Positions 18,810 to 47,570 of a stretch of 64,000 nucleotides of DNA are shown here, piece after piece. The notes under the pieces are model-generated. The model worked only from the letters and a program-made list of their open reading frames with translations. It did no database searches and was not told the origin of the DNA. Made by a program: the position numbers and the translations under genes. Origin of the DNA: Shigella phage ESh24; sequence record ON528734, one strand, 5' to 3'. How positions within the stretch are numbered: position 1 is the first letter of the stretch; the number at the start of each line of letters is the position of its first letter.

Positions 18810-19067
18810 ATGAAAACTTTCAAAGAGTTTGCTATAAAAACTACTATTACTGAATCTTCCCACGGTATGGAAGTAAAACTTGGAATGGCTTTAGCTGAAG
18901 CTGAGCGTCTTTTCTCTCGTATTAAAGAACTTGCTGCTGCAGTCGATCCTTCGTCTTTTAAAGGAGACCAAACGAAAGTTAAAGCACTTTTAGCATTATG
19001 CTCCGATGCGGGAGAAATCGCTAAAAATGGTTCTAAGATGAAGAAACGATTAGAAGATTTAAAATAA
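18810..19067 (+). CDS. internal-protein-like small protein at the ipI locus (capsid-targeting-like N-terminus)
   Basis: 85 aa, MKTFKEFAIK… resembles the MKTYQEFIAE capsid-targeting sequence; LAE cleavage-like motif; sits where T4 has ipI. Confidence 0.6.
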   Translation: MKTFKEFAIKTTITESSHGMEVKLGMALAEAERLFSRIKELAAAVDPSSFKGDQTKVKALLALCSDAGEIAKNGSKMKKRLEDLK

Positions 19068-19079
19068 TTTCACAAAGTT

Positions 19080-19110
19080 ATTTACATAGGGTTTTAGTTG
19101 TGATACTATT
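19080..19110 (+). promoter_or_regulatory. early-type promoter inside a 7-bp inverted repeat
   Basis: tttaca…tgtgatactatt flanked by atagggt/accctat (19086-19117); near-identical to the 18750 promoter. Confidence 0.45.
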
Positions 19111-19138
19111 ACCCTATCAACTACTGAGGAGAATAAAA

Positions 19139-19324
19139 ATGAAACGTTGTGAATTAATTCGAAATGTTGCTATTGCAATTTCTGCTTCCGCTTTTAGTTT
19201 TTCAATGTTTGTTGGATTTATATGCGGATTATTGACTACAGCAGAAAATGTTTTTTCACTTGTAGTAGCATTTTTAATTGGTTTAATCGCTATTGTTATG
19301 GATAAAATTTCTAAAGGTGAATAA
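19139..19324 (+). CDS. small membrane protein (2 predicted TM helices)
   Basis: ATG 19139 with RBS gaggagaataaaa; 61 aa, hydrophobic AIAISASAFSFSMFVGFICGLL…. Confidence 0.5.
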   Translation: MKRCELIRNVAIAISASAFSFSMFVGFICGLLTTAENVFSLVVAFLIGLIAIVMDKISKGE

Positions 19325-19729
19325 ATGAATATTAACGAATATTATGTTTATGCTGGAGATTATGCAAATCCTTCTCATTTTGAAGGTAATTTAATACCTG
19401 ATAGAGTTTTTAATACTCCTTTTGAAGCGTGGAGTTGGGTTGAAAGTAAAAATGGATTTTCTTATCGTTATGTTGAAGTAACTGATTGGAAAGGAACTAA
19501 ATATCCTAAAGAGCATTATTATGTAGACCCATCTAAAGTAAATTTTCTTTTGTTCGCAGGCGATAATTACTATCCTTGCGGTGGATATGATGATTTGATT
19601 GCGTATGCTGAAACAGAAGATGAATTACGCCAAATTATTGAAGACAATAAATCAAAACGATTTGGCGATAGTTTTGACTGGTGGCAAATCGTAAATGCCC
19701 ATACACATACTATTGTTGATAAAGGTTAA
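19325..19729 (+). CDS. hypothetical protein
   Basis: 134-aa ORF, start overlaps upstream stop; aromatic-rich. Confidence 0.6.
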   Translation: MNINEYYVYAGDYANPSHFEGNLIPDRVFNTPFEAWSWVESKNGFSYRYVEVTDWKGTKYPKEHYYVDPSKVNFLLFAGDNYYPCGGYDDLIAYAETEDELRQIIEDNKSKRFGDSFDWWQIVNAHTHTIVDKG

Positions 19730-19731
19730 TA

Positions 19732-20019
19732 ATGATTCTTTATGCGAAAGTATCATCCATTGAAAATGGATATAAATATGATCAAGAAGCAGCTAAAGCC
19801 TTGATTGATGATTATGGCATTTTAACATGTTTTGAAGTTGAAAAGGTTTACATTGATCGTTCATCTTCGCAAGTTAAATTAGTAAATGAAGACCGTAAAT
19901 TTAATACAGTAAATTTTGATTTCTTTATTGAAACAGAAAAAGGTCCTCTTGAATATGATATTTTCAAGAATCCTTTGGGTCTTGAATGCATCGTAAGTAT
20001 GTATCATCATAAATGGTAA
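19732..20019 (+). CDS. hypothetical protein
   Basis: 95-aa ORF immediately following the previous gene. Confidence 0.55.
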   Translation: MILYAKVSSIENGYKYDQEAAKALIDDYGILTCFEVEKVYIDRSSSQVKLVNEDRKFNTVNFDFFIETEKGPLEYDIFKNPLGLECIVSMYHHKW

Positions 20020-20116
20020 ATATGCTTTAAGAATTATTTGTTATTATTAACTCATACCGCACTGATTAATACCCTCTATCATCAAGGGTTCTTGTTTGAG
20101 AGCCTTTGTTAATAAT

Positions 20117-20189
20117 TGGGAATTAGCCAAGTTGGTAAGGCATAGCACTTTGACTGCTAGATGCAAAGGTTCGAGTCCTTTATTCCCAG
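20117..20189 (+). tRNA. tRNA-Gln (anticodon TTG)
   Basis: Cloverleaf: acceptor tgggaat/attccca, anticodon loop ctTTGac, T-arm ggttcgagtcc; no encoded CCA. Confidence 0.85.
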
Positions 20190-20190
20190 C

Positions 20191-20277
20191 GCGAGAATGG
20201 TCAAATTGGTAAAGGCACAGCACTTAAAATGCTGCGGAATGATTTCCTTGTGGGTTCGAGTCCCACTTCTCGCACCA
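20191..20277 (+). tRNA. tRNA-Leu (anticodon TAA), type II
   Basis: Acceptor gcgagaa/ttctcgc, anticodon loop ctTAAaa, long variable arm, 3' CCA encoded. Confidence 0.85.
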
Positions 20278-20282
20278 AATTT

Positions 20283-20356
<74 letters not shown>

Positions 20357-20402
20357 ATTTATGACTCGTCGTGAGACGCTCAGTTCTTTATTAGGGACTG
20401 AT

Positions 20403-21011
20403 ATGCATTTTTATCTTTATAAAATAACAAATAAAATTAATAATAAAATTTATATTGGTGTGCATTCTACCGAAAATTTAGATGATGGATATATGGGTTC
20501 TGGTAAATTATTAAAAAGAGCCCAAGATAAATATGGTATAGAAAATTTTTCTAAAGAAATATTAGAGTATTTTGACGATAAAGAATCTATGCTTGAAGCC
20601 GAGAAAAATATTGTCACAGAAGAGTTTTTAAATAGACCAGATGTGTATAATTTAAAACTTGGAGGTGAAGGTGGATGGGATCATATAAATAATTATCCTA
20701 TGACAGATCAGCAACGCGAATTAATTTCATTGGGTGTTAAAAAGGCACATTCTAATGGAAAATTAAAAGGATGGTCTTCAAATGGATTAATGAAGAATGG
20801 CTTTGCTGGTAAAACTCATTCTCAAGAAGCTAAACGTAAAATAGCAAAAGCAAACGAAGCAAAAGTTTCTGTGGATGAAAGAAAAAGAAGAATAGAAATT
20901 TCTAAATTATATGATTTTTCTAAACGTGGCGAATTGTCTAAATATGCTAAGCATATTGGCGTAAGTCATACTCAAGCAAAAAGAATTCTAAATCAAATTA
21001 ACAATATATAA
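20403..21011 (+). CDS. segB: GIY-YIG homing endonuclease in the tRNA cluster
   Basis: GIY-YIG motif FYLYKITNKINNKIYIGVHSTENLDDGYMGSGKLLKRA; start ATG 20403 (RBS aggga), alternative ATG 20361. Confidence 0.8.
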   Translation: MHFYLYKITNKINNKIYIGVHSTENLDDGYMGSGKLLKRAQDKYGIENFSKEILEYFDDKESMLEAEKNIVTEEFLNRPDVYNLKLGGEGGWDHINNYPMTDQQRELISLGVKKAHSNGKLKGWSSNGLMKNGFAGKTHSQEAKRKIAKANEAKVSVDERKRRIEISKLYDFSKRGELSKYAKHIGVSHTQAKRILNQINNI

Positions 21012-21017
21012 ATATTT

Positions 21018-21107
21018 GGAGGCGTGGCAGAGTGGTTTAATGCACCGGTCTTGAAAATCGGCAGTCGCTCCGGCGACTCATAGGTTCAAATCCTATCGCC
21101 TCCGCCA
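21018..21107 (+). tRNA. tRNA-Ser (anticodon TGA), type II
   Basis: Acceptor ggaggcg/cgcctcc, anticodon loop cTTGAaa, long variable arm, CCA encoded. Confidence 0.85.
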
Positions 21108-21112
21108 GTTTT

Positions 21113-21188
21113 GCTGATTTAGCTTAGTAGGTAGAGCAACTCACTTGTAATGAGAAGGTCGGCGGTTCGATTCCGTCAATCAGCACCA
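21113..21188 (+). tRNA. tRNA-Thr (anticodon TGT)
   Basis: Acceptor gctgatt/aatcagc, anticodon loop cTTGTaa, T-arm ggttcgattcc, CCA encoded. Confidence 0.85.
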
Positions 21189-21189
21189 A

Positions 21190-21264
21190 GGCCCTGTAGC
21201 TGGAAGGTTCAAGCAAGCGACTCATAATCGCCAGATGGTGGTTCAATTCCACCCAGGGCCACCA
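21190..21264 (+). tRNA. tRNA with anticodon CAT (Ile2 or Met; Ile by position in T4)
   Basis: Acceptor ggccctg/cagggcc, anticodon loop ctCATaa, T-arm ggttcaattcc, CCA encoded. Confidence 0.8.
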
Positions 21265-21276
21265 AATTATGAATTA

Positions 21277-21363
21277 GGGGAGTTATCCCGTAGAGGTAGC
21301 GGTGTGGACTGTAAATCCATTGTCATTGCGACTCGGGTGGTTCGACTCCATCACTCCCCACCA
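21277..21363 (+). tRNA. tRNA-Tyr (anticodon GTA), type II
   Basis: Acceptor ggggagt/actcccc, anticodon stem-loop gtgga-ctGTAaa-tccat, long variable arm, T-arm ggtgg-ttcgact-ccatc, CCA encoded. Confidence 0.75.
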
Positions 21364-21367
21364 ATTT

Positions 21368-21442
21368 GGATGTGTAGCTCAATGGCAGAGCGATCGCCTG
21401 TTAAGCGATTGGTTATAGGTTCGAATCCTATCACGTCCGCCA
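21368..21442 (+). tRNA. tRNA-Asn (anticodon GTT)
   Basis: Acceptor ggatgtg/cacgtcc, anticodon stem-loop atcgc-ctGTTaa-gcgat, T-arm ggttcgaatcc, CCA encoded. Confidence 0.8.
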
Positions 21443-21446
21443 AATA

Positions 21447-21522
21447 CGAGGCATAGCTCAGAAGGAAGAGCAAGGACCTTCTAAGTCCTAGGTCGTAGGT
21501 TCGATCCCTACTGCCTCGACCA
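21447..21522 (+). tRNA. tRNA-Arg (anticodon TCT)
   Basis: Acceptor cgaggca/tgcctcg, anticodon stem-loop aggac-cTTCTaa-gtcct, T-arm ggttcgatccc, CCA encoded. Confidence 0.85.
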
Positions 21523-21538
21523 ATTAAGTGAGGAAAAT

Positions 21539-21889
21539 ATGAAAGGTAATGTTTATTTAGTAGTTCACGATTTAACATTTTATTTTAATCACAATGACAC
21601 TGTTATTTCTGAACGTGTAATTAATTTGCTTTATCAACACGCGGATTATGTTTATGTCGAAAACGAATATGGTCATTGGCAATTTCTCAAAAATCGTTCA
21701 TTTGGCTTAGATGGTTACGAATACTTTGAACGTAAAGACCTTTTAGATAAAATTCCGTTATCTACGCAATATCAAAATCACGAGTCTTTATATAAATGCC
21801 GTCCAATTCGAAATGCTGAATCTGCGTATGAAGCAATTGATTTATGGCGTAAACGTCGTGAACAGATTGATGCTTTAAAAGAATATTAA
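21539..21889 (+). CDS. hypothetical protein
   Basis: 116-aa ORF with strong RBS (gtgaggaaaat ATG) immediately after tRNA-Arg. Confidence 0.65.
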   Translation: MKGNVYLVVHDLTFYFNHNDTVISERVINLLYQHADYVYVENEYGHWQFLKNRSFGLDGYEYFERKDLLDKIPLSTQYQNHESLYKCRPIRNAESAYEAIDLWRKRREQIDALKEY

Positions 21890-21894
21890 GAAAC

Positions 21895-22230
21895 CGGGTC
21901 GCTACCGGTAAGTCGTCGGACTGATGTTCCCTGGGTAAGGAATCGTGTTAATAAATCTTTATGATTTGTTGATGCCCTCTTACATCACAGCAGAAACGGC
22001 GCACCGAATTATCGATTCGAGGAAATATCTTTGCCGTAAGCCGAGTAGCGTTTTTGACGGAACGTTCGGATATGGTCGAGATATGGCCTTTTAAAAAAAT
22101 ATTGAGTAGCGTCAACTGCTTAATAACCGGGTTCGAATCCCGGCGTTTCGTACAAACACTTGCCTTAGCAGGTGGAACCCCGACAAGGTTGCCGCAAGGC
22201 TTAGCCCCGACCGAAAGGTTGGGGCTTTTT
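21895..22230 (+). ncRNA. candidate stable structured RNA(s), possibly the counterpart of T4 species 1/2 (rnaC/rnaD) RNAs
   Basis: Visibly more GC-rich than flanks; tRNA-like T-arm aaccgggttcgaatcccgg; ends in terminator gccccgacc-gaaa-ggttggggc + TTTTT (22204-22230); no convincing ORF. Confidence 0.4.
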
Positions 22231-22305
22231 AGTTTGAATCACTCAGAGAATGCTGTTACGGATAATAAATAATTAATAACCAATAAATTATTTCAAGGAT
22301 TTTAA

Positions 22306-22869
22306 ATGAAAACCTATGCCGAATTTTTAACCGAAGCAGCAAAATTACCATCTGAAGCAGATCTTACTAAAGTATTCTTCCACTTGGACCCAAAAGACCG
22401 GGGCGATTTTCTTAAGTGGAAAGCTAAAGCTATTGAAATGTATAACATCGATAATAGTTCTTTTACGATGAGTCAAGAAAATAAATTCAATAAAGCATTT
22501 TTCAAAATTTCTAAGAAACTTGCATCAGGCGCTCAGGTTCCTAAATCTGCCTTAGCTACTCCTGAACGTGCGCCTGTTAAAATTTCTAAGAATATGTTCG
22601 ATACTAAAAAATACGTTAATGCTTTGAATAAAGCTCTTGATGCATTGGATGATGCAAAGAAGGCAGCACACGATCTTCAAGACGTATACACCGATTTTGA
22701 TCGTAAAACTAAAGGTTCTATTTCAAATAGCGAACGCAATAGTGTAAGTGTTTATTCTGATAGCCTTGATGTTCTTGGCGATGCGTATACTGAAATTAAA
22801 AATCGTATTAACACCGCATCTAAGCTAAAAGCTGCCGCAGAAGCTATAATAACTAAACTAAGCAAATAA
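22306..22869 (+). CDS. internal-protein-like protein with capsid-targeting sequence (MKTYAEFLTE-A)
   Basis: 187 aa; first 10 residues match the CTS pattern shared with the 27137 and 27827 products; RBS aagga. Confidence 0.7.
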   Translation: MKTYAEFLTEAAKLPSEADLTKVFFHLDPKDRGDFLKWKAKAIEMYNIDNSSFTMSQENKFNKAFFKISKKLASGAQVPKSALATPERAPVKISKNMFDTKKYVNALNKALDALDDAKKAAHDLQDVYTDFDRKTKGSISNSERNSVSVYSDSLDVLGDAYTEIKNRINTASKLKAAAEAIITKLSK

Positions 22870-23035
22870 TTTTAAATCCCTATCTAAATGATAGGGCTTT
22901 TTGGTATCTAGGCCTTTCCAGGCCTCTCTAGGCATCATTTAGTTTCTACCCTTTATAATATATTATCCTATCCTTTGATTTCCCCTCCCTGCCCTAGAAT
23001 TCCCCAAAACTTTTTAAAAAATTTTTCACAAAACT

Positions 23036-23066
23036 GTTTACATCCTTGTCCTTCCATGGTACTATA
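23036..23066 (+). promoter_or_regulatory. early-type promoter (GTTTACA … TGGTACTAT) with conserved leader
   Basis: Same promoter/leader block (tggtactatacaactatcaact) recurs at 38667, 40106 and 34652. Confidence 0.5.
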
Positions 23067-27136: not shown

Positions 27137-27718
27137 ATGAAAACGTATAAAGAATTTATCGCTGAAGCTTCTGTGGAAAAGGCCAAAGGCATTAATAAAG
27201 ATGAGTGGACCTACCGTTCGGGAAACGGCTTTGACCCTAAAACGGCTCCTATTGAACGGTACTTAGCTACAAAGGCTTCCGACTTTAAAGCCTTCGCTTG
27301 GGAAGGACTTCGTTGGCGTACCGATTTAAATATTGAAGTTGATGGACTTAAATTTGGCCATATTCAGGATGTTGTTGCTAGTAACTTAGACGCAGCTTTT
27401 GTTAAAGCCGACGGTGACCTTCGTCGCTGGAATTTAAAACTGTTCTCTAAACAGAAAGGCCCGGTGTTTGTGCCTAAAGCTGGTAAATGGGTTATTGATA
27501 ATAAATTAGCTAAGGCTGTCAACTACGCTGGTCTTGAATTCGCCAAGCACAAATCATCATGGAGAAGTCTTGATGCAATGGCCTTCCGTAAAGAATTCGC
27601 CGAGGTTATGACTAAAGGCGGCTTTAAGGCAGAACTAGATACCTCTAAAGGTACGTTTAAAGACGCTAATGTTCAGTACGCTTACGCCGTTGCTAATGCA
27701 GCCCGCGGTAATTCTTAA
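27137..27718 (+). CDS. ipIII: internal protein III-like (capsid-targeting sequence MKTYKEFIAE-A)
   Basis: 193 aa (T4 IPIII is 194 aa); CTS; position adjacent to e. Confidence 0.75.
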   Translation: MKTYKEFIAEASVEKAKGINKDEWTYRSGNGFDPKTAPIERYLATKASDFKAFAWEGLRWRTDLNIEVDGLKFGHIQDVVASNLDAAFVKADGDLRRWNLKLFSKQKGPVFVPKAGKWVIDNKLAKAVNYAGLEFAKHKSSWRSLDAMAFRKEFAEVMTKGGFKAELDTSKGTFKDANVQYAYAVANAARGNS

Positions 27719-27826: not shown

Positions 27827-28300
27827 ATGAAAACATATCAAGAATTTATTACTGAAGCAGCTATTAATTCTCAAATTATTGCTGAATCTTTTACTGATCT
27901 TTTGAAATTTAAAAAAGGACAGAAAATCACTGCTGTATTGGATGATGGTACAGAAGTTGAGATGGATGTGCAAGGATATAATTATGCAGTAGATGGAAAA
28001 CTGTATAATAAATCTCATGCTAAATTTGATTCATTTGACGACTTTGTTAATACAGTTGAAGATGAAAAAACTCGTCGATCCATTGCAACTGGTGATGCTA
28101 AGGTTCTTATGGCACATGGTCATGAACGCATTCGCGCTAAACAGAATAAAATGGGTGAAGATAATTTTGCATTAGTCGGTTATCAATCTGGTAAACAAAC
28201 CTATGGTTATCAGCGTACTGCTACCATGTATAACAAAAATGGTAAAATTGCCTTTGTAAATAGTAAAGGTTCTATTCAGTACGTTAAATCATTCAAATAA
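27827..28300 (+). CDS. internal-protein-like protein with capsid-targeting sequence (MKTYQEFITE-A)
   Basis: 157 aa; canonical CTS; body unlike the 27137 product and longer than T4 IPII (100 aa). Confidence 0.7.
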   Translation: MKTYQEFITEAAINSQIIAESFTDLLKFKKGQKITAVLDDGTEVEMDVQGYNYAVDGKLYNKSHAKFDSFDDFVNTVEDEKTRRSIATGDAKVLMAHGHERIRAKQNKMGEDNFALVGYQSGKQTYGYQRTATMYNKNGKIAFVNSKGSIQYVKSFK

Positions 28301-47055: not shown

Positions 47056-47096
47056 AAATAATAAATACCCTTATCTATTTAAGGTAAGGGTTTATT

Positions 47097-47570
47097 ATGT
47101 TATTGACTGGCAAATTATACAAAGAAGAAAAACAGAAATTTTATGATGCACAAAATGGTAAATGTTTAATTTGCCAGCGAGAACTAAATCCTGATGTTCA
47201 AGCTAATCATCTTGATCATGACCATGAATTAAATGGACCAAAAGCAGGAAAGGTACGTGGATTGCTTTGTAATCTCTGCAATGCCGCAGAAGGTCAAATG
47301 AAACATAAATTTAATCGTTCTGGCTTAAAGGGGCAAGGTGTTGATTATCTTGAATGGTTAGAAAATTTACTTACTTATTTAAAATCCGATTACACCCAAA
47401 ATAATATTCACCCTAACTTTGTTGGAGATAAATCAAAGGAATTTTCTCGTTTAGGAAAAGATGAAATGATGGCTGAGATGCTTCAAAGAGGATTTGAATA
47501 TAATGAATCTGACACTAAAACACAGTTAATAGCTTCATTTAAGAAGCAGCTTAGAAAGAGTTTAAAATGA
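47097..47570 (+). CDS. 49: endonuclease VII (Holliday junction resolvase)
   Basis: 157 aa; Zn-binding cysteines CLICQ…CNLCN and HLDHDHE motif; same length as T4 gp49. Confidence 0.85.
   Translation: MLLTGKLYKEEKQKFYDAQNGKCLICQRELNPDVQANHLDHDHELNGPKAGKVRGLLCNLCNAAEGQMKHKFNRSGLKGQGVDYLEWLENLLTYLKSDYTQNNIHPNFVGDKSKEFSRLGKDEMMAEMLQRGFEYNESDTKTQLIASFKKQLRKSLK

Follow-up and report, generated by a model that had tools for sequence, protein, structure and literature searches.

An open reading frame (ORF) on the plus strand at positions 22306–22869 of a 64,000-nucleotide (nt) stretch of Shigella phage ESh24 (ON528734), a stretch that is referred to here in its whole length as the window and to which the positions given here refer, encodes a 187-amino acid (aa) protein that is best explained as a previously unannotated internal protein (IP), packaged in the head and injected, whose functional gene lies on a terminator-bounded cassette at a third polymorphic IP locus; we assign this explanation a probability of about 0.6. 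The gene is constrained, the N-terminal tag of its product is present and conserved, and both the cassette and the locus are polymorphic. Packaging by means of the tag appears highly probable; a role as an anti-defence effector, proposed by analogy with known IPs, has about an even chance, and the narrower proposal that the protein inhibits type IV restriction in particular is tentative. Packaging, cleavage and injection are predicted from the sequence, and the anti-defence target, which is drawn from analogy, is the part that we infer most weakly. The gene, its ribosome-binding site and its tag are arranged as follows:

22306..22869, + strand: coding sequence (CDS) of the putative capsid-targeted 187-aa protein, a phrog_2280 member (ORF call, PHROG match and ratio of nonsynonymous to synonymous substitution rates, dN/dS)
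22295..22299, + strand: Shine-Dalgarno sequence AAGGA, 6 nt 5′ of the ATG (direct sequence reading)
22306..22335, + strand: capsid targeting sequence (CTS), residues 1–10, MKTYAEFLTE, with gp21 cleavage predicted after Glu10 (LTE/A, the slash marking the predicted cut; identity to the T4 tag, key positions kept)

The product begins with MKTYAEFLTEAAKL (in a longer reading, MKTYAEFLTEAAKLPSEADL), and a stop codon directly 5′ of the ATG at 22306 leaves no possible start further upstream. Its first ten residues are identical at 7/10 positions to the tag MKTYQEFIAE of T4 IPII and IPIII. A six-frame translation of the window contains three matches to MKTYxEF[LI]xE, all at the first codons of ORFs (22306, 27137 and 27827), against a chance expectation of 4.5e-6 calculated from the window's own residue frequencies; the tag motif is therefore no chance match. 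Amber-suppression work (Mullaney and Black, 1996), as described in PMC9026906, assigned targeting mainly to residues 4 and 7 and processing to residues 8 and 10, and the gp21 cleavage motif is L/I-x-E (PMC9026906). All of these positions are kept in the 187-aa protein: the N-terminal tag of about 10 residues includes Tyr4 and Phe7 for targeting, and L8-T9-E10, with Leu8 and Glu10 for gp21 cleavage, is followed by the small residue A11. LTE/A is the sole [LI]xE in the protein, so that a single cut is predicted. The first-pass annotation of the window had read MKTYAEFLTE-A as a capsid-targeting and cleavage signature shared with the genes at 27137 and 27827, and the six-frame scan and the retained key positions bear this out as a bona fide CTS-type tag; its count of four CTS-like ORFs is correct when the ORF in the ipI slot (18810–19067) is included.

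The protein matches phrog_2280, labelled "unknown function", with E=2.9e-53, residues 1–181 aligning with profile positions 1–178 of 178. An exhaustive HMMER search returned only one distant representative (P0013), iterated profile searches recovered 49 protein clusters, and a tblastn search with P0013 reached 350 phage records (Escherichia, Klebsiella, Enterobacter, Kosakonia, Yersinia, Serratia and other phages), so the family is spread over several Tevenvirinae genera, including Karamvirus and Mosigvirus. Its architecture, which is unchanged in distant relatives at 20–30% identity, runs from a CTS-like decapeptide into a helical N-domain of about 55 aa that is conserved, and from there through a disordered linker to a C-domain that is helical and variable. 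In the alignment, the N-domain reads RMTKxKWQSAMDxVPxGERDDFMKF..VQKLYGIDT..YYKVQAAFKSL, the linker is A/P/K-rich and varies in length, and at least two unrelated C-domains occur, namely the hairpin type of the window and a "GLKVRGKYGS...LSYNV" type.

The tag is retained across this family although the bodies diverge to about 20% identity. Its consensus is M-[LIK]-[NKT]-[FY]-x-[EDQ]-[FI]-[LI]-x-E, followed by S, A or T; an aromatic residue 4 and Glu10 are present throughout the 49 protein clusters in all members that are full-length and correctly started, and L or I occupies position 8 in nearly all. Residue 4 is Phe or Tyr and residue 7 is Phe or Ile (rarely Leu) in all full-length members, and many members have a second L/I-x-E a few residues downstream of the tag. 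In Karamvirus KMB19, the family member carries the tag MLNFKEFIAE and two other CTS ORFs carry MKTYQEFMAE and MKTYNEFLNE; the family tag is unlike the other two but still keeps positions 4, 7, 8 and 10, which indicates that the tag is conserved by function and not by DNA homology. On the metagenomic contig that encodes P0013 (L003), the tag of P0013 is MITFNEFLNE/S and that of the adjacent downstream ORF is MITFKQFLNE/S:

L003 (contig SRR28624380_555336) 2092–2526, + strand: ART-PolyVal/DUF3990 ADP-ribosyltransferase-like ORF, 144 aa, tag MITFKQFLNE/S, adjoining P0013

The body of this ORF scores 45.4 bits against ART-PolyVal (cut-off 31.2). It thus resembles a second, unrelated cargo on a P0013-type tag, reminiscent of the packaged T4 enzyme Alt, and by that analogy it is a candidate injected enzyme. 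The idea suggested by L003, that each phage places its own tag on all of its cargo, holds only partly, since KMB19 has different tags on its three CTS ORFs.

A probable second member of the family occurs in many Tequatroviruses as a 157-aa CTS protein (G50_00134, RB32ORF132c, Sf22 gp36; 512 records) with the tag MKSYAQFLNE/A and a phrog_2280 match of E=5.7e-60. Its C-domain is clearly related to that of the Karamvirus members (VKGIIAKYEAILKEL versus VKGIVSKYEKILALL). Direct similarity between the 157-aa and 187-aa proteins is weak by BLASTP and hhalign alike and is confined to the tag and a weak C-terminal helix match, with an hhalign probability of 58% over 24 residues. Homology of the two, by way of the common PHROG and intermediate family members, is probable but not proven. 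Three metagenome-derived sequences (P0010, P0011 and P0014) are chimeric ORFs that fuse fragments of the gene to another ORF, to nudE and to the N-terminus of e.8, respectively; they suggest natural deletion or recombination variants with breakpoints within the gene. In Klebsiella phage ValerieMcCarty01 (Jiaodavirus; L014 1501–1677), a 58-aa family ORF comprising the tag and the start of the N-domain occupies the equivalent position after the tRNAs and appears to be a decayed remnant.

That 22306–22869 is a real gene is virtually certain. The window was assigned to Tequatrovirus, its top DNA matches being 95–96% identical, and each of the 164 matching phage records, RB14 and RB69 among them, covers at least 80% of the 187-aa protein, 163 of them at 95–99% identity. 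The ORF is uninterrupted in all copies examined except that of RB69. Comparison with a metagenomic copy at the same locus (contig L010, 89% identical) gave dS 0.88, dN 0.063 and dN/dS 0.07, and dN/dS lies between 0.04 and 0.13 against closer copies (comparison set G50, RB14 and L010); the gene is therefore under strong purifying selection, with dN/dS of about 0.07. Its GC content and third-position GC content match those of the neighbouring phage genes.

In the counter-clockwise sense of the T4 map, the order of genes in the window is gene 1, 57A, 57B, the ipI slot, tRNAs, rnaD/rnaC, the 187-aa gene, e.8–nudE, e, ipIII and the ipII slot. The spacer between rnaC and e.8 measures 192 bp in T4 and T2 versus 864 bp in the window, and no CDS is annotated in this interval of T4 (NC_000866). 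Six allele states were found at this locus:

rnaC–e.8, empty: phages T4 and T2
rnaC–e.8, 157-aa gene only: phages ECO07P2 and SH7
rnaC–e.8, 187-aa gene only: the window and RB14
rnaC–e.8, both genes in tandem: G50
rnaC–e.8, linker-deleted allele of 162 aa: CT01
rnaC–e.8, frameshifted allele with a 1-nt deletion: RB69

The boundaries of the cassette in the window are marked by the following elements:

22203..22226, + strand: stem-loop terminator ending the rnaD/rnaC stable-RNA unit, left boundary of the cassette (terminator scan: 10 pairs, then a T-run)
22878..22896, + strand: cassette terminator stem-loop, then TTTTTGGTATCTAGGCC, the junction sequence common to all alleles (terminator scan and allele comparison)
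23037..23065, + strand: early-type promoter (TTTACA, 17-nt spacer, TACTAT with TG) serving e.8, right boundary of the cassette (kept in the cassette-less T4 and T2)

Homology of rnaD and rnaC to those of T4 was shown by alignment. Every cassette ends with a stem-loop terminator followed by TTTTTGGTATCTAGGCC, and in G50 the rnaC terminator sequence recurs after the 157-aa gene, providing direct repeats that would permit gain or loss of a whole cassette. A search of Rfam gave no match in the cassette. The T4 IPs have been placed in two loci (PMC12373910), and rnaC–e.8 is a third polymorphic IP cassette locus besides these. In its account of Repoila 1994, PMC4122927 relates the proposal that cassettes are shuffled by way of conserved sequences on the 5′ and 3′ sides of ip ORFs, and the pattern at rnaC–e.8 is compatible with the exchange of ORF cassettes suggested for IP loci and for promoter early stem-loop elements (PeSLs; PMC4122927). 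The RB69 copy (L007, AY303349, 2501–3063) has a single-base deletion at gene position 368 that splits it into RB69ORF149c and 148c, and this may be a true pseudogene or reflect a sequencing error in the record of 2003. Transfer of the gene into RB69 by a recent horizontal event, considered because of the 97% protein identity, was dropped as evidence of mobility, since the flanking rnaC and e.8 are 97% and 94% identical as well.

The signals upstream of the gene differ from those of the known ip genes. The putative promoter element is:

22264..22271, + strand: AATAAATA, a 7/8 match to the T4 late-promoter box TATAAATA, 34 nt 5′ of the ATG (putative function)

AATAAATA occurs only twice on the plus strand of the 64-kb window. 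The other occurrence (47060–47067) lies 29 nt 5′ of gene 49 (endonuclease VII, 47097–47570, + strand), a position consistent with use of the variant box as a late promoter. Relatives carry AATAAATA or GATAAATA at the equivalent upstream position, with xATAAATA retained, and in the distant homologue on L003, GATAAATA is located 35 nt upstream. No early-type GTTTAC promoter was found in the window sequence upstream of the 187-aa gene, whereas GTTTAC-type early promoters precede Ip5 and ipIII in the window and ipI, ipII and ipIII in T4. On these signals, the gene may be transcribed late, which would suit a prohead cargo.

The predicted mature protein has 177 aa, a mass of 19.6 kDa, an isoelectric point (pI) of 9.46 and no Cys, and it contains no internal gp21 sites. 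It is thus as small and basic as the mature T4 proteins IPI* (pI 9.0), IPII* (pI 9.6) and IPIII* (183 aa, 20.4 kDa, pI 9.65), its pI lying within their range of 9.0–9.65. A model was built with AlphaFold2 (AF2) from a 41-sequence alignment and has a confidence (predicted local distance difference test, pLDDT) of 81.7 for the 187-aa protein. Together with the family alignments, it delimits the following parts:

22354..22524, + strand: conserved helical N-domain, residues 17–73, the constant part of the family (family alignments; AF2 pLDDT about 80–87)
22534..22593, + strand: disordered basic linker, residues 77–96, an A/P/K-rich spacer in other genera (pLDDT below 50 at residues 77–89; family alignment)
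22594..22866, + strand: C-terminal long helical hairpin domain, residues 97–187, the variable part of the family (AF2 pLDDT 90–97)
22504..22517, + strand: 14-nt direct repeat AAAATTTCTAAGAA, first copy, encoding KISK and bounding the CT01 deletion
22579..22592, + strand: 14-nt direct repeat AAAATTTCTAAGAA, second copy, encoding KISK and bounding the CT01 deletion

In the model, the C-domain consists of helices 101–134, 141–153 and 158–186, which form a hairpin over residues 101–186, and the protein as a whole is predicted to be small, all-helical and binder-like. The allele of Shigella phage CT01 has lost residues 67–91 (25 aa) in frame, exactly between the two copies of AAAATTTCTAAGAA; what is lost is the tail of the final N-domain helix together with most of the linker, the C-domain being intact, and the deletion looks like a repeat-mediated event.

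Based on these features, the gene would act as follows. It would be transcribed from its own late-type promoter-like box, with no early promoter. The decapeptide MKTYAEFLTE would bind the prohead scaffolding core and bring the protein into the assembling head, where gp21 would cut after Glu10 (LTE/A) to yield the basic 177-aa, 19.6-kDa protein, which would be kept with the packaged DNA; the processed N-terminus is predicted at Ala11 (semi-tryptic peptide AAKLPSEADLTK). Ejected with the DNA, the protein would be in the cell ahead of any phage gene expression and could neutralise a first-line host defence, the likeliest target being a modification-dependent (type IV) restriction enzyme, as for Ip1, Ip2, Ip3 and Bas37_0260. 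The N-domain may serve a constant function and the variable helical C-domain may determine target specificity. The precedents are as follows: GmrSD type IV restriction enzymes are inhibited by Ip1, Ip2 and Ip3, a different one by each (PMC12373910); Bas37_0260, a CTS protein without homology to Ip1–3, inhibits McrBC (10.1101/2025.11.20.689424); and IPIII, which acts in the host cytoplasm, is active even when supplied in trans without its CTS (10.1101/2022.04.14.488369).

Several points weigh against this explanation. Strong purifying selection and conservation across genera are atypical of an effector engaged in an arms race and would also fit a housekeeping role in the head. T4 and T2 grow well without the gene. 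The promoter box, a 7/8 match, is putative, and the gp21 gene lies outside the window, its presence being assumed from the Tequatrovirus taxonomy. In the literature, no virion proteomics was found for any family member: the paper on fPS-65 and fPS-90 contains none, and the mass spectrometry study of ValerieMcCarty virions was set aside as uninformative, since that phage has only the 58-aa remnant of the gene. Searches of Pfam, PADLOC and PDB sequences with the 187-aa protein also found nothing: Pfam gave sub-threshold noise only (best, Cytochrome b562 with 18 bits versus a cut-off of 30), PADLOC gave no match, and the PDB sequence profile matched only a designed helical cage (E=0.09). Three fold searches with the protein yielded no functional clue and no known inhibitor. 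Beyond the tag, no similarity was found to ipIII and the ipII-slot gene of the window or to Ip5, Ip7, Ip8 and Ip9; the known inhibitors are mutually unrelated, so similarity to an inhibitor does not discriminate.

The alternative that survives best, which we consider unlikely, is that the protein is packaged by means of the tag but functions inside the head or in ejection, as a basic DNA-associated protein that condenses, organises or delivers the genome or as an aid to core assembly. The dN/dS of about 0.07, the N-domain conserved over several Tevenvirinae genera, the A/P/K-rich linker in other genera and the basic mature protein (pI 9.46) all favour it. A/P/K-rich linkers resemble DNA-binding tails. 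However, T4 and T2 lack the gene, RB69 has it in frameshifted form and ValerieMcCarty01 retains only 58 aa, and these losses indicate that it is dispensable for head assembly and DNA delivery; moreover, the variable C-domain and the presence/absence polymorphism look like the behaviour of a host-range accessory gene, and the T4 IPs, long taken for DNA-associated fillers, all proved to be restriction inhibitors (PMC12373910).

It is more doubtful that the protein is injected to act in the take-over of the host, for example by modulating transcription, the nucleoid or the envelope, as Alt does. The ART-PolyVal enzyme with a matching tag beside the L003 homologue suggests that the tag delivers more than restriction inhibitors, and Alt itself, an ADP-ribosyltransferase, is a packaged host-modifying enzyme (PMC9026906). 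Nevertheless, the Pfam, PDB and fold searches with the 187-aa protein revealed neither an enzymatic domain nor an enzymatic motif, and the predicted form of the protein is that of a small all-helical binder. The distinction between take-over and anti-defence is itself blurred, since Alt also shows an anti-defence phenotype, against Mokosh (10.1101/2025.11.20.689424).

Less probable still is that the protein is not packaged at all, the CTS-like codons being a 5′ homology patch for recombination of IP cassettes and the protein being cytoplasmic after ordinary expression. The flanking sequences proposed for the shuffling of ip ORFs (PMC4122927, in its account of Repoila 1994) and the activity of IPIII in trans without its CTS (10.1101/2022.04.14.488369) would accord with this. 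Against it, the tag is conserved at the protein level, at the exact functional positions, in members with about 20–30% aa identity that are too diverged in DNA for homologous recombination; the Karamvirus family tag keeps positions 4, 7, 8 and 10 although it is unlike the two other IP tags of that phage, and no early promoter was found upstream of the gene. Finally, that the ORF is spurious or a decaying pseudogene has a negligible probability, and for the copy in the window the evidence of selection and conservation has already refuted it: the split of the RB69 ORF by a 1-nt deletion and the purely generic labels ("hypothetical protein" or similar) among the records listed are outweighed by the coverage of at least 80% of the length in 164/164 records with intact copies in all examined phages save RB69, dN/dS of 0.04–0.13, an architecture common to distant homologues, pLDDT of 81.7 (above 90 in the C-domain) and opposite-strand ORFs of just 31–44 aa.

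The three other CTS genes of the window are:

18810..19067, + strand: Ip5, 85 aa, CTS protein in the ipI slot, with the N-terminus MKTFKEFAIKTTITE followed by S at the predicted cut, a longer IPI-type tag
27137..27718, + strand: ipIII orthologue, 193 aa, MKTYKEFIAE/A (phrog_5341, E=1.6e-117; length and position as in T4 ipIII)
27827..28300, + strand: 157-aa CTS protein in the ipII slot, MKTYQEFITE/A (Pfam DUF7412, E=5.7e-96; phrog_3155, "internal virion protein")

The product of 18810–19067 is 98.8% identical to Ip5 of phage RB15, and the 157-aa protein in the ipII slot is unrelated to T4 ipII (100 aa). Between the ipI slot and the 187-aa gene, a 216-aa ORF (20361–21011, + strand) with a GIY-YIG-like N-terminus (YLYKITNK..IYIGVH) is located between tRNA-Gly and tRNA-Ser, where T4, T2 and G50 have tRNA-Pro. 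ARAGORN found no tRNA-Pro in 19000–23000; the place of tRNA-Pro thus seems to have been taken by a homing-endonuclease gene, at a site that differs from that of segB in T4. A 116-aa ORF (21539–21889, + strand) between tRNA-Arg and rnaD is absent from T4 and present in T2 (T2_136), RB69 (ORF150c), G50 and others. ARAGORN also called a "tRNA-Phe(aaa)" at 22057–22153 (+ strand) inside the homologue of T4 rnaC (species 1 RNA); the call reflects a tRNA-like fold of that stable RNA and not a tRNA gene, and neither rnaC nor rnaD had a match in Rfam.

With regard to novelty, it was already known that T-even phages carry polymorphic CTS-tagged IPs (since 1994) that are injected as anti-restriction factors. 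At least 10 polymorphic IPs have been reported, an observation attributed to Repoila et al. 1994 in PMC12373910, and type IV restriction is now known to be inhibited by Bas37_0260 and by all three IPs of T4 (PMC12373910; 10.1101/2025.11.20.689424). The four IPs with targets identified in these sources all disarm restriction enzymes that attack modified T-even DNA, each acting on one enzyme variant (PMC12373910; 10.1101/2025.11.20.689424). The new elements are the family itself with its modular build and its presence in several genera, the fact that the model phages lack it, and the identification of rnaC–e.8 as a third IP cassette site. The first-pass annotation had described the product as an extra CTS protein at a locus without an internal protein gene in T4 and as a strong candidate for an undescribed injected anti-defence effector, and had left room for a close homologue of a known T4 internal protein. 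The 192-bp spacer without a CDS confirms the locus, and the body of the protein proved to be unrelated to IPI, IPII, IPIII, Ip5, Ip7, Ip8 and Ip9. "Undescribed" stands insofar as no descriptive name for the 187-aa protein, its 157-aa relative or the distant homologues occurs among the records and source names listed ("hypothetical protein", "Phage protein", "gp36" and ORF tags) and the PHROG is one of unknown function, but the existence of extra IPs in T-evens is not a new idea; likewise, the protein is extra with respect to T4, from which it is absent, but it is not peculiar to ESh24, being found in 164 phage records and, as a wider family, in several genera. By analogy, the protein is a testable candidate for a new injected anti-defence factor and not a new kind of system.

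To our knowledge, IPs are the only phage factors in the cell when the DNA enters. A tagged family that is common in T4-like phages of the type used in therapy and missing from T4 and T2 poses a concrete host-range question, and the third cassette locus is worth including when T-even genomes are mined for anti-defence genes; in hundreds of deposited genomes, the label "hypothetical protein" could be changed to "putative internal head protein (CTS)". As a speculative extension, which we regard as possible rather than probable, the 187-aa protein may form, together with the 157-aa protein and their relatives in further genera such as Karamvirus and Mosigvirus, one ancient modular family of injected effectors that was lost from T4 and T2, in which the tag and the N-domain provide loading and delivery or a shared host contact and swappable C-domains act on different defences, possibly beyond type IV enzymes; rnaC–e.8 would then be a third, unrecognised anti-defence hotspot of T-even phages.

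Among known systems, T4 IPIII (Ip3), the target of which is the ECOR17 GmrSD (PMC12373910), is close in form. Both proteins have a 10-residue CTS ending in L/I-x-E (MKTYQEFIAE in T4, MKTYAEFLTE in the window), their mature forms are nearly equal in size and charge (183 aa, 20.4 kDa, pI 9.65 versus 177 aa, 19.6 kDa, pI 9.46), and both genes are non-essential accessory genes of the variable region by the e block. Unlike ipIII, the 187-aa gene has no early promoter and lies at rnaC–e.8, not beside e; the proteins show no similarity past the tag, and the predicted fold of the 187-aa protein comprises two helical domains and a linker. IPI* (Ip1), the injected inhibitor of the CT596 GmrSD type IV enzyme, is the paradigm for the proposed mechanism (PMC3012670; PMC12373910) and is likewise small, basic and CTS-tagged, encoded at a polymorphic cassette locus flanking the tRNA region; however, IPI has a 19-residue propeptide and a compact alpha/beta fold (PMC3012670), whereas the 187-aa protein is all-helical in the model and unrelated in sequence. 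The IPs not found in T4 are alternative CTS-tagged ORFs that replace one another in the hyperplastic loci of T-evens, the window itself carrying Ip5, and Bas37_0260 shows that such IPs can inhibit other type IV systems, namely McrBC (10.1101/2025.11.20.689424). In contrast to the 187-aa protein, they have 74–102 aa, and their genes lie in the ipI locus, which is flanked by 57B and tRNA.4. The 187-aa protein, which is similar to them over 12 tag residues only, is about twice as long, and its gene lies across the tRNA/stable-RNA cluster from theirs. The 157-aa CTS protein of other Tequatroviruses shares the rnaC–e.8 locus and the cassette structure with the 187-aa protein but is absent from the window. 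Finally, the layout of the locus may reflect the shuffling of PeSLs and ip cassettes (Arbiol et al., 2010; Comeau et al., 2014): the gene's own upstream signal looks late-type and not early, but stem-loop terminators bracket the gene and an early promoter follows immediately after them, copies of the terminator sequence recur where cassettes join (G50), and the alleles differ by whole cassettes.

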